Shown here piece by piece: positions 18,281 to 58,045 of a stretch of 64,000 nt of DNA. Location: assembly GCA_951406725.2 (NCBI GenBank), contig OX597832.1, positions 22,754,001 to 22,818,000 on the forward strand. The letters run 5' to 3'. The stretch's first letter is position 1, and each line of letters opens with the position of its first letter. The translations under genes and the position numbers were made by a program. The notes below the pieces were generated by a model, which saw only the letters and a list, made by a program, of their open reading frames with translations, did not search any database and had not been told where the DNA came from. This stretch comes from Octopus vulgaris. Its lineage: Eukaryota.

Positions 18281-18452
18281 GGAGAATTCACAAAAAAGGA
18301 AAAGACGAAGCAGGTGGTGTAGAAAGCAAACAGATGTATTAGTATAACGCTCGGGAATTGAAAAAAGTCTTTAACGTTTCGAGCCTACGCTCTTCTACAG
18401 AAAGGAACACAGAAGGAAACAAGGAGAGAAAAAAATGTGTGTAGTGGCTAAT
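18281..18452 (-). mobile_element. Family H1 hammerhead-bearing short element
   Basis: CTTT-CTGTAGA-A-GAGC-GTAG-GCTC-GAAAC-GTT-AAAG at 18369-18404 (minus); 3' end abuts (TA)n. Confidence 0.75.
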
Positions 18453-19114
18453 GACACATTAAATTGTCTACCCGCTAGAAATAAGAACCGCCAAAAAGTC
18501 TTCACTGAAAACAACAGATTCAACGGTATAATATATAACTATGTAAATGTAGTCAAGTGTAAATGTCAGCAGGATTTCTAGTGTTATTCGGTTGTAAAAC
18601 ATGAATTTACCAAGTGTTTAATATCGTGTGCAGGGAACAGCTTAGAAATCCGTTTTCTTATCGCAGAAGATTGCCATAACAAAAATTATCTCTGAGAAAA
18701 TATAAAATATATCTATACCCAATTAGCGTAATGGATTTGAGTTGTCGCTAAAAATAATTAGATCTGAGACACCAGAGAATCACTCTGCTTTATGATTTGA
18801 TTTATGAATACAATCCATCATGTTTGGTCGTCTTAGGAAAAGCACTTGTTAAAATGAAATTTGCCGTTTTGAGTAAACACCTATAGGGTATATTTATCTC
18901 ATTGTCGGATTCATAGTTTTTCCCTTTCTAATATCAATTTCTTTCAATAATTTTTCTGTCTTACATTTTTCTATGTCTTACACATTTGTTTCATTCATTA
19001 AAGTTCGGCCAGTCAGAAATATATACAGAAAAGTTGAAGATCAGTCACTGGTGTTGCAAGTGGGTGCTCGACTGATTAAACATTCATTACTCGCAGTATC
19101 TGGAAACACTGGAA

Positions 19115-19496
19115 GCACTCCGTCGGTTACGACGATGAGGGTTCCGGTTGATCCGAATCAACGGAACAGCCTGCTCGTGAAATTAACGTGTAAGTGGCTG
19201 AGCACTCCGCAGACACGTGCACCCTTAACGTAGTTCTCGGGGATATAAAGCGTGACACAGAGCGTGACAAGGCCGACCCCTTGAAATACAGGTACAACAG
19301 AAACAGGAAGTAAGAGTGAGAGAAAGTTGTGATGAAAGAGTACGGCAGGGATTACCACCATCCCCTGCTGGAGCCTCGTGGAGCTTTTTTAGGTGTTTCG
19401 CTCAATAAACACTCACAACGCCCGGTCTGGGAATCGAAACCGCGAACCTATGACCGCGAGTCCGCTGCCCTAACCACTGGGCCATTGCGCCTCCAC
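19115..19496 (-). mobile_element. SINE family 3, near full length
   Basis: tRNA-like head with A box TGGCCCAGTGG and B box GTTTCGATTCC followed by a non-tRNA body. Confidence 0.85.
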
Positions 19497-19670
19497 AGTT
19501 AAAATATACTGCAGTGCTGAATTCGGTCTCAGCATAATGGCTGTGAATACACGCTACTGATAACGCTCAATGAGACTGGAATACGTCCAACGTTAGCATT
19601 CGCCGTAGCTAGGACAAGTTCCGTTTCCGTTATATAGAAACTGTGTTATCTAACACAACCCTTCCATGTA

Positions 19671-20141
19671 TTGGGTTGGCAACTAAGTTACCTCCGTTTT
19701 TTTTTTATTTTGGAATTGATTGCGTTTTTAAATTTTGGAATCTATTTTTTCCGAGAATTCTATTTTTGAATCATTTTGGAATCTATTTTATTTTTCAAAT
19801 TAATTTTTTGTTAATTTTTGTTTATTTTCAGATCACTAAAATGGAATGTCAAGTTAAGAAAAGCGAGCATTTTCGACAACTCCTTCTTTTTGCTTTTAAT
19901 CAAGGTTCTAAGGTCACAAAAGCTTCTCGCGAAATTTGTGATGCGTATGGAGAGGGTGCTATAGCTGAAAGAACCGCTCGTGGTTGGTATGCCAAGTTCA
20001 AAAAGGGAAATTTTGATTTCAGAGATGCACCTCGTTCTGGCCATCCAGTTGAGTTCAATGAAGAGCGATTAAACCAACTTTTGCACGAAAATTCTCGTCA
20101 AACGACAAAGGAATTCGCAGAGAAAAAAAAGGAATGCTCAA
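19671..20141 (+). mobile_element. Mariner (mellifera-like) 5' fragment: TIR and N-terminal HTH region
   Basis: TA|TTGGGTTGGCAACTAAGT TIR; ATG at 19841, MECQVKKSEHFRQLLLFAFNQG...WYAKFKKGNFDFRDAPRSGHP; truncated after about 100 aa. Confidence 0.9.
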
Positions 20142-20409
20142 TCCGGTGAGCTGAATACGTTGTACATTGATATTTATTTGCTTAATCAATCCCGTAATTA
20201 ATCGAGTTATCATCTAATTTATGAAGCAGTTTTCTTCCGAGCCAGTCCTTTCTGAGCTTTAAAAGCAGATGTTTGATGATATATTGGAAGATCTACATAA
20301 TCTAAAACAGAAGAAGAGTGTAGCTGAAAGTAGATGCCTCAGATTTCTTCTCATAAGTTCTTTTACTGTACCCTGTTTTTTGTCTGGAGAGATATTTCTC
20401 TATCAGATT

Positions 20410-20650
20410 CAGTAAAGCTGAAGTGTATAGGAACACATTACCAGTAGTGCCTGTTTAATATCAAAATAAAGCGGGTTGACTGTAGAAACTTTTAAATCAC
20501 GCTATGAACAGCAAGCGCATGCCTTTGTACCGAGTCACAAAACCCAAGCAACGTCTCTGCTTCACTGCGCCTGGAAGCTCAAGAGCAGAATTCACGACAC
20601 TTCCATGAGAATGAAGTATCCTTAAAAATCCTATACCTTATGTAGTTGTT
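20410..20650 (+). pseudogene. Penelope-like GIY-YIG endonuclease fragment
   Basis: KAEV...GLTVETFKSRYEQQAHAF..TSLLHCAWKLK resembles the YKA.V..YIGLT..TFK.RY..H..SF..T.LS..IW.LK pattern of PLE endonucleases. Confidence 0.55.
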
Positions 20651-20720
20651 ATGTACAGTGCATGCATTCCTTTATACCCAATCACAAAATCCAAGCAACT
20701 TCTCTGTCTCACTGCATCCG

Positions 20721-55409: not shown

Positions 55410-56651
55410 TATTTCGACTATCAGAACAATTTAAATTCAAATTTTCAACACAACCGTCGGACGAACGGTAACGTGGAACTCTGACTAAGTTCCATGATAC
55501 TTTTGCAGCTTTAATAAAAAGCATATTTTCCACCTTCTTTTGCACTTCCGTTCTCATCTATGTAGCTGTATGTGTGTGTGTATACATAAATATATATATA
55601 TATATATATATATATATATATGCTGTATTAGGCAACTATATCTATATCTATCTATCTATGTATCTATCTATACTATCTATATATATATATATAATTATAG
55701 ATGTATAAATATATATTAATACATATATATATGAATATACGTTAAGACGCAACACACTCACACGTGTATGCATGTGTACATATATTTATGTGTGTGTATA
55801 TAAATGTAAGTAGATAAATAGATAGATAGATAGATAGATAGATAGATAAACAGGTAAGTCGGTATGTTGGTATGTATGTATGTATTTAGGTATGTAGGTA
55901 TGTAATGTAGGTAGGTAGGTAGGTATGTATGTATGTAGGTAGGTAGGTAGGTAGGTAGGCAGGCAGGTAGGTGGGTAGATAGGTAGGTAAGTAGACAGAT
56001 GAGTCTTTGGAATATATGCAGGTATAATTTTACACAAACACACACACACACACATACACACACTCTCACACACACACGCACATGCACACCTACAGTGACA
56101 TACACACTCACACTCACAAATCGTAAGCATTTCTATACTTACCGTAGATAAAACCGGATTCCATATTTCCAAGTATTATCGTATAAAAGAAAGCGCAAAA
56201 TCATGAAACTCGCTTAGAAGAGAAATTTTAAATTTAATACTTTCTTTGCCTCTATTTTCGTCTTGTTGCGAAGTATTTGAAGAAAGCTACAATACAGCTT
56301 ACATACGTAATCCTTAATACTACTCGGATATAGTTGGAAGACATTTTTTGTTTCGTTGTTTTACTATAGCAGAGTTAGTAGAAAACATCTGTGAGAGGAT
56401 TCCATAGAAAATAATGCAAAGTTGTATTTAGTTTTTATGTTTCGACACACACAAGAATACAGGTAAGTATTAAGGATTTGGTTTTGCTTTTTTATCCTTT
56501 CGCGATGTATGTGTTTGCGTTCATGTATGTATGCGTGTGTATGTGTGTGTGTGTGTGTGTGTGTGTGTGTGTGTGTGTGTGTGTGTGTGTGTGTGTGTGT
56601 GCGTGTGTGTGTGCGTGTGTGTTTGTGCGTTTACATATGTATCAATCTACA

Positions 56652-56880
56652 TAGGCGACGAGCTGGCAGAAACGTTAACACGCAGGGCGAAATGCGTAAC
56701 CGTATTTCGTCTGCCGTTACGTTGTGAGTTCAAATTCCGTCGACTTTGCCTTTCATCCTTTCGGGGTGGATAAATTAAATACCAGTTACGCACTGGGGTC
56801 GATGTAGTCGACGTAATACCTATGTCTGTCCTTGTTTGTCCTCTCTATGTTTAGCCCCTTGTGGGCAATAAAGAAATAGA
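56652..56880 (+). mobile_element. SINE family 1 monomer
   Basis: Head through the AAAGAAATA tail. Confidence 0.85.
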
Positions 56881-56995
56881 CACATACAACATACTTATAT
56901 ACATACATACATTCATACATACACACTTACATACATATATGCACAATGCAAAAATAAATAAGTTCATACATACATGAAGACACGCATCGTACATG

Positions 56996-57335
56996 CGCTC
57001 ACAACATCATAAGCGGAAAGTGTAACCTCTCGAAAGAGCTGTTCTTCACTCCTGCTCCAGAGCGTCGGCTGCGGGGTCACTCCAAAAAGCTCTATCTGCG
57101 ACGATTTCATCTCAATGGAAGGAGAGGGGCTTTCTCCGTCCCGGTTGCGGATCCGTGGAATAAGCTGCCGGACGAGATAGGGAAGATGCCGACGACCGCT
57201 CGGTTCAAAGTCTCCCTTGACCACAAATGGCCTGAACTCTTCGCATGAACACCACCCTGTACATAACTCCATGTCCCCCTACATGATCTTGCTTTTTGCT
57301 TTTTGAGCCAAAAAATTAACTTAACTTAACTTAAC
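56996..57335 (+). mobile_element. CR1-clade LINE 3' end
   Basis: Open frame AHNIISGK..RLRGHSKKLYLRRF..AFSVPVADPWNKLP..FKVSLDHKWPELFA*, short 3' UTR and (TTAAC)n tail. Confidence 0.85.
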
Positions 57336-57344
57336 TAAGTCGGA

Positions 57345-57600
57345 TAGAAGCGATAGGCCCTCCTGATGACAATATGTCTTCTACAATGAACGATAAAGAG
57401 AATCCCTATGACCAGAGCCTTTGAAACCATCAGATTCCATACACAGATGATAAATTCATATTTATACCAGTGAATATTGATGCAATTGGTCTTGTGAGAA
57501 AATGGCTGAGTGAGAATCTGCATCAACTGGGACTTTCACAAGAAATTCGAAATCAACCAGTTACCTCGTACGCAACACGTTTGCAGTCTGTAAGCGGAAC
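57345..57600 (+). pseudogene. RLE endonuclease C-terminal remnant (R4/Dong-like)
   Basis: IEAIGPPDDN..KENPY..FIFIPVNIDAIGLVRKWLSENLHQLG resembles the IE..P...K..Y...P.IIGALG pattern. Confidence 0.5.
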
Positions 57601-57830
57601 GATATAAATATGCATAACTTTTCTGAAGTTCAAAATGTGACGTTGTTTTCGTTATCTATATTCCGACGATGGACCATTGTATCTTTGTTAGAAGACAATT
57701 CCTTCATTAGAGGGGGGCATTAAATAATTAAAACAAGAGAATATACATACATACATACATACATGTGTATGTATATATATATATATATATATATATATAT
57801 ATATATATATATATATATATATATATATAT

Positions 57831-58045
57831 AACGGGAAGCTTTATGAAAATAAACAAAAGACGAAGGCAGGTGGAATACAAACAAACAATTGCATTAGTA
57901 TGGCGCTCAGGAATATAAATAAAAGAAGTCTTTTACGTTTCGAGCCTACGCTCTTCAACAGAAAGATACACAGAAAAGAAACACGGAGAGAAACAAGGAG
58001 AGAAAAAAAATGCGTGCAGAGGCTAGCGAATCAACATGAGATAGT
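57831..58045 (-). mobile_element. Family H1 hammerhead-bearing short element
   Basis: TCTTT-CTGTTGA-A-GAGC-GTAG-GCTC-GAAAC-GTA-AAAGA at 57929-57966 (minus); 3' end abuts (TA)n. Confidence 0.8.

Follow-up and report, generated by a model that had tools for sequence, protein, structure and literature searches.

The 64,000-nucleotide stretch of the Octopus vulgaris genome analysed here (contig OX597832.1, positions 22,754,001 to 22,818,000; hereafter the window, in whose coordinates all positions are given) is 35% G+C, rich in microsatellites and contains 130 (TA)5+ runs. It also contains a non-coding repeat of ~190-210 bases, H1, present as five full copies and one internally deleted copy. The full copies lie at 18281..18469 (-), 27790..27997 (+), 37511..37694 (-), 38263..38445 (-) and 57831..58045 (-), and their best pairwise identities are 70-89% by blastn. 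A profile of the five copies recovers all five from the window with E values of 1e-47 to 1e-56 (nhmmer), over 58042-57836 for the last copy and over the spans just given for the others, and detects no further full copy there. The deleted copy, at 9310..9425 (+), has lost the hammerhead motif described below while keeping its 5' and 3' parts, and the profile recovers it as two pieces, 9313-9356 and 9356-9423. Direct inspection and nhmmer thus place all six copies where a first-pass annotation, made from the letters of the stretch, had put them. The same profile reaches a distant relative at 1713-1795 (E 2.2e-6), part of an element at 1673..1830 (+) that lies between (TA)n runs. Provided that the window is representative, the density of H1 would be ~90 copies per megabase, as extrapolated from the six found here.

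What is the structure shared by the H1 copies? Four of the five full copies contain a minimal type I hammerhead layout with the core CUGUNGA, and in the fifth the core is broken. In the copy at 27790..27997 the motif occupies 27868..27903 (+): stem I (27868-71/27900-03) encloses the core (27872-78, with U6 at 27875 and N7 at 27876), an extra A (27879), stem II (27880-83/27888-91), GAAA (27892-95), a palindromic ACGT (27895-98) and H17 (27899). Aligned, the motifs read CTTT for stem I, CTGTNGA for the core, an extra A, GAGC/GCTC for stem II, GAAA, CGT, H and AAAG. Of 48 stem cells, 95.8% are paired; stem III is the ACGT palindrome, an extra base follows A9, and stem II opens with G10.1-C11.1. 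All five window copies that retain the motif have T at position 6, they carry A, C, T, T and T respectively at position 7, GAAACGT is found in all five, and H17 is A, A, U and A in four copies and G in one. The first-pass annotation's two claims about the core, a U at the normally fixed position 6 in every copy and a position 7 free to vary, therefore stand. Its claim of a shared intact fold holds for the otherwise perfect motifs with C3 at 18400 (18369..18404 (-), core CUGUAGA, H17 = U), 27872 and 57961 (57930-57965, core CUGUUGA). In the copy that it placed at 37512, position 17 is G and stem I contains a mismatch (37596-37631, C3 at 37627), and the copy that it placed at 38243 does not have an intact motif, having lost three bases of the core and changed in stems II and I (38353-38385, C3 at 38381).

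With one core mismatch permitted, a type I descriptor matches four sites in the window (1719, 18400, 27872 and 57961) and 0-2 sites per shuffle in 20 block-wise dinucleotide shuffles of it. H1 fails the canonical core test (C3 U4 G5 A6 N7 G8 A9) at position 6 and thus is outside the canonical minimal hammerheads of Penelope-like elements (PLEs). Searches of Rfam with two short stretches returned no hammerhead at E values up to 10, and among 150 of the 268 rows returned for the whole window all were microsatellite-driven miRNA models. A hammerhead-like word at 27507 (-) was dropped, as it is without a proper stem III or stem I. The motif of the distant relative (1715-1749, stem I GTTT/AAAC) does have the A6 that had been ascribed to it; its core is CCGACGA, however, so that it is not canonical either. 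Its U4C is a second core variant, and the computed monomer of the relative adopts a closed form in which the 5' arm of stem I pairs with GAAAC.

U6 is seen in public sequencing data as well. Four of 24 listed public runs were aligned to window 27778-28060, which contains the reference copy at 27790..27997, at 80% likeness, and letters were listed where they reached at least 4%. Three contig runs, with three organism labels, matched 2832, 7945 and 5443 records. At position 6 (27875) no alternative letter reaches 4% in these three runs, and within 27868-27903 only position 7 shows other letters, A at 22-23% and G at 8%. Thus U6 looks family-wide. Summed word depth, a measure that favours abundant words and is not copy number, is 0.9-2.1 million on the motif versus 0.07-0.54 million on the flanks, and drops off near 27790 and 27990. 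Among the loose ends listed, the best supported lie immediately before and after the motif and have a T/C-rich consensus resembling that of sister subfamilies. A head-to-tail joint of two H1 units occurs in one contig of the run X8 (7945 matched), and none in the other runs or in the window; copies are otherwise solo, six of six in the window, with tandem joints very rare in the contigs.

The pattern of substitution suggests that the motif is likely under constraint. Across all five window copies, the motif has 8 changes in 177 cells and the 3' flank 38 in 351 (p 0.009); omission of the decayed copy, which favours the result, gives 5 in 144 versus 33 in 277 (p 0.002). The four intact copies together have five motif changes, of which four are at positions 7 and 17, a clustering that retains a p value of 0.006 even when seven free columns are counted.

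H1 insertions are also distinguished by where they lie. (TA)n adjoins the 3' end of the copies at 18281..18469 and 57831..58045, the 5' end of that at 27790..27997 and both ends of that at 37511..37694; the 5' side of the copy at 38263..38445 is a (TATC)n run. An end lies within 15 bases of a (TA)5+ run in six of six copies, the 3' end in four and the 5' end in three, whereas one of 15 rough blocks of two other repeat families is TA-adjacent (Fisher p 1.3e-4), and 4.3% of background positions are as close to such a run. TA targeting by H1 is thus specific, as expected of non-autonomous PLEs and solo PLE termini, which insert into microsatellites without a clear target-site duplication. The enrichment at insertion sites that the first-pass annotation had proposed to quantify is present at the scale of the window; its statement that the 3' ends abut TA runs is right for four of the six copies and is too narrow, for 5' ends do so as well.

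Which elements end in a hammerhead of this layout? We scanned 15 of 64 parts of a metagenome collection with a pattern of the H1 layout in which position 6 was open to A or T. There were 125 matches in 120 loci, and position 6 is A in every one of the 125. In nine of 122 loci the motif is on the same strand as a PLE open reading frame (ORF), which argues that the layout marks PLE termini. In L078, L014 and L042 a GIY-YIG ORF, whose CX4CxxC linker is of the Neptune type, ends 91-104 bases before the motif, and in L004, L067 and L013 it follows such an ORF, linker included, at a greater distance; in L071, L031 and L120 it stands just before a reverse transcriptase (RT) ORF bearing the DKG motif. 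Two further loci, L020 and L087, are PLE-associated with ambiguous strand. The 5' end of H1 is ~82 bases before C3, on the same scale as the 91-104-base spacing. The exact H1 motif has no match in the metagenome contigs and none in viral contigs; two U6 matches in viral contigs (L121 and L122) lack stem I and were judged to be chance. In their own right, L071:525-2844, and likewise L031 and L120, encode a near-complete PLE ORF (761 aa, DKG and RYIDD motifs) that begins directly downstream of an A6 minimal hammerhead and is preceded by the end of an earlier tandem copy, and five loci (L016, L033, L082, L084 and L104) carry minimal hammerheads in opposite-strand pairs 26-427 bases apart, as in PLE insertions.

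The closest known counterparts are the minimal hammerheads in the terminal repeats (pLTRs) of PLEs described by Cervera and de la Pena 2014 (PMC4209133). The hallmarks given in the parts of that report available to us, an extra base between 9 and 10.1, G10.1-C11.1, a palindromic 15.2-16.2 and a U-rich 5' flank, are all four present in H1, as are the short stem I, the loopless palindromic ACGU stem III and the predominance of solo dispersed copies. Two features differ: no PLE ORF is linked to H1 in the window, and position 6 is A in 56 of 56 representatives of their Fig. S3 versus U in H1, a comparison that is partly circular because their descriptor required the core. The architecture therefore supports a PLE-type fold in H1 and an element that would act like a PLE terminus, a link of architecture. 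The first-pass proposal of a PLE-mobilised family survives insofar as the minimal-hammerhead layout is common to PLE termini; it lacks a PLE ORF in the window and a 3' flank of H1 that matches the PLE-bearing loci. As to the partner, Neptune and Naiad PLEs are both described as biased to microsatellites (10.1101/2021.04.23.441226). Since Naiads target (TA)n and, in the available text of that report, are without hammerheads, while Neptunes combine the microsatellite bias with a CX2-5CxxC linker, insertion into (TA)n together with a terminal hammerhead fits Neptune better than Naiad. A Neptune-type partner is our best guess; unlike a Neptune, H1 is non-coding, and the choice of clade is a guess.

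Other known systems resemble H1 less closely. Animal non-LTR retrozymes, units of 150-450 bases related to PLE pLTRs, are like H1 non-coding, carry a type I hammerhead and are commonly found as monomers, according to the portions consulted of PMC7229834 and 10.64898/2026.07.22.740005. The same sources describe tandem units, canonical cores and self-paired circular RNAs, whereas H1 occurs almost only as monomers, its minimal core is non-canonical, and the copy examined folds less well than its shuffles. Likewise, the Bcep176 hammerhead (PMC3088659; PMC7151607, both in part) resembles H1 in that position 6 is a pyrimidine and the remaining core is kept. It differs in being one phage ribozyme, with C6, whereas the animal repeat H1 is multicopy, has U6 and carries a minimal stem III of the dimer type. 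Many PLE and unclassified short interspersed element (SINE) families are reported in Octopus vulgaris, with no hammerhead noticed in the accessible part of that report (PMC13282606), and H1 may be among its unnamed repeats. Literature searches on octopus hammerheads and on variant or inactive retrotransposon cores yielded no report of a U6 family. Position-6 variants may be listed by Lunse et al. 2017, which reportedly deals with small PLE hammerhead variants, and by Arkhipova et al. 2017, said to describe Terminons. SINE, retrozyme and miniature inverted-repeat (MITE) identities for H1 fail on defining features.

What would the change at position 6 do to the ribozyme? In computed folds of the isolated motif, U4-G5-U6 can pair with the ACG of stem III, which places U6 opposite A15.1; the probability of the G5-C15.2 pair is 0.39-0.99 with U6 versus 0.01-0.37 with A6, and 0.00-0.54 in the whole element. 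The modelled pairing of U6 can close the core onto the very palindrome that dimer formation needs. Experiments on other hammerheads indicate that the position is sensitive. Single mutants of the CUGA turn all show low activity, which second changes do not restore (available part of PMC9901934), and an A6C hammerhead has a kobs of 3.55e-6 per min versus 0.3 for A6 at 0.3 mM Mg2+ (PMC7151607, in part). The natural A6C ribozyme is reported, in the sections consulted, to be weak in Mg2+ and active in Mn2+ (PMC3088659), with a kobs in Mn2+ of 0.18-0.31 per min (PMC7151607). A Poseidon PLE hammerhead is described as cutting only with protein, and its cleavage as dispensable for insertion in vitro (PMC11167929, in part). 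For A6U itself a literature search found no hammerhead data (one twister paper only), and PMC11014351 contains no passage on it. From the solo copies and the position-6 change we would expect H1 cleavage to be slow or absent; given the kept G8, G12, A15.1-U16.1 and H17, a residual, assisted cleavage may persist. Where the first-pass annotation offered either an active variant or a dead fold, the literature points to a strongly attenuated state between the two, and the computed folds raise a closed hairpin as a further possibility.

We propose, on balance and with moderate confidence, that H1 is a non-autonomous element derived from a PLE terminus, that a PLE targeting TA mobilises it, and that its ribozyme is attenuated and survives chiefly as a fold. 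H1 would be the counterpart of the PLE pLTR and would represent either a non-autonomous family in its own right or solo termini of a PLE that itself has U6. First, H1 would be transcribed from outside promoters or from tandem copies. Second, the RT-GIY-YIG protein of a PLE that carries a hammerhead and targets microsatellites would bind the H1 RNA and, through this putative RNA intermediate, copy the element into (TA)n runs by reverse transcription. The A6U change presumably arose once, in a founder, and later masters would have varied at position 7 and in the flanks while selection held the other core bases and the stems. Self-cleavage is probably very slow in Mg2+; the motif would be retained mainly as an RNA shape or sequence for the PLE protein, with protein-assisted cutting at most residual.

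Several observations weigh against this proposal. For the complete 190-base RNA, folding predicts a main structure other than the hammerhead or the closed hairpin (stem I P 0.00), and the linear RNA of the one copy examined folds worse than shuffles (z +1.94). The 3' flank of H1 has no homologue in the PLE-bearing loci (best E 1.7), Pfam finds no PLE RT or GIY-YIG domain in 426 complexity-filtered stop-to-stop frames of at least 45 aa in the window, and four locus proteins have no match there by tblastn. The contig alignment would miss A6 families having other flanks; T at position 7 goes unlisted in the runs though present in three of five window copies, which makes the 4% limit on other letters at position 6 an imperfect one that favours abundant words; and the raw-read run X21 supplied nine reads only, none covering the core. 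The depth peak is in part an artefact of T-run indels and of flank changes private to the reference copy.

Two more of the opposing observations are also what one would predict if H1 came from a PLE and its hammerhead were an unselected vestige, with A6U a founder accident in a master that could move without the motif and with few masters and hypermutable T-run flanks mimicking conservation. Variable sites in the run contigs, counted by hand after removal of four changes private to the reference, number 1 in 36 motif positions versus 15 in 153 flank positions, which is not a significant difference (p 0.15). Covariation amounts to one both-sided pair, the stem I change that the first-pass annotation had read as support for the fold; the U4C relative alone supplies it, 80 of 500 shuffles score as high, and inside H1 there is none. 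The 9310 copy, moreover, retains both ends without the motif, Naiads as described in 10.1101/2021.04.23.441226 spread without any hammerhead, and the in vitro dispensability of cleavage noted above (PMC11167929) agrees. Against a vestige, the only common variant in 36 bases is position 7, with two transversions, the window changes cluster at positions 7 and 17, and in the contig loose ends sister subfamilies seem to keep the core while both sides differ. We consider an unselected vestige unlikely.

Quite unlikely, in our estimate, is that U6 makes a working core, such that the dimer cleaves usefully in vivo with PLE protein or Mn2+-type ions, a U6 latch keeping the monomer closed until protein opens it. 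Three of five copies, and the run contigs, retain G8, G12 and A15.1-U16.1 together with an H17 that can be cleaved (A or U), the computed monomer does pair U6 with A15.1, and the Mn2+ activity of natural A6C and the protein dependence of a PLE hammerhead provide precedents. However, the CUGA-turn mutants argue otherwise, cis dimer partners are rare, and the literature search returned no data on A6U itself.

Finally, we regard it as highly improbable that H1 is unrelated to PLEs, being part of a tRNA-type SINE, the tail of a long interspersed element (LINE) or a small DNA element, its hammerhead likeness due to chance: one core base is off consensus, Rfam is silent on the two short stretches and no PLE partner is shown, yet the window contains no tRNA, terminal inverted repeats in the four regions examined come only from the TA flanks, the descriptor matches exceed the shuffles far as a family and an identical layout marks PLE ends in the metagenome loci. 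A stretch of H1, GCTCGAAAC, does resemble what we take to be the consensus of the RNA polymerase III (Pol III) B box, and the relative at 1719 has an exact B-box-like word. There is no A box in H1, however, and within the 90 bases that precede the core all five copies have T runs of 5-9, upstream of the B-box-like word, at which Pol III would stop.

Returning to our proposal of an attenuated ribozyme retained as a fold, a bolder version, which we advance only tentatively, is that H1 is a very abundant retroelement whose hammerhead has been repurposed: A6U would create a latched, protein-gated or wholly non-catalytic element, selected because the PLE RT recognizes it. This would be a natural, genome-scale exaptation in which a ribozyme fold came to serve as a signal for mobility, and searches that demand CUGANGA would all have overlooked further families with U6 or U4C. 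The role of the hammerhead in PLE termini is an open question, as cleavage is poor and dispensable in vitro and whole PLE clades are without one. A widely amplified family with a fixed A6U and a kept motif offers a natural experiment that separates the need to cut from the need for the fold. It also illustrates how whole high-copy families can escape descriptor searches bound to CUGANGA. Should the motif be no more than a vestige, H1 is one more PLE-derived repeat.

The window contains several neighbouring elements. Immediately after the H1 copy that the first-pass annotation placed at 27791, 28010-28135 (+) is the 3' half of an apparent further family of type I hammerheads, in which stem III is a real one (ACAG/CTGT, 28026-28041) and GAAGCT (28043-48) forms one arm of stem I. 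An A6 core and the matching arm come from contigs with loose ends before 28018, with depth to 0.5 million in X8. The element occurs once in the window, and there a short inverted copy takes the place of its 5' half, as often in PLE insertions. A very abundant SINE-like family, with up to ~19-21 overlapping self-matches and not TA-adjacent, occupies 176-399, 17137-18160, 29930-30566, 33925-34292, 41620-42009, 51692-52091, 56649-57003 and 59632-60421; we presume that it resembles octopus SINEs. At 5681-6838 (-) lies a decayed LINE-type piece with a weak RVT_1 match (E 0.003) followed by a weak zf-RVT match (E 0.008). Mariner-type fragments at 19613-20260 (+) and 20721-21268 (-) are inverted and ~460 bases apart (Pfam HTH_48, E 1e-18), a third such fragment lies at 55120-55359 (-), and Tc1/mariner traces are found at 32088 and 36787.

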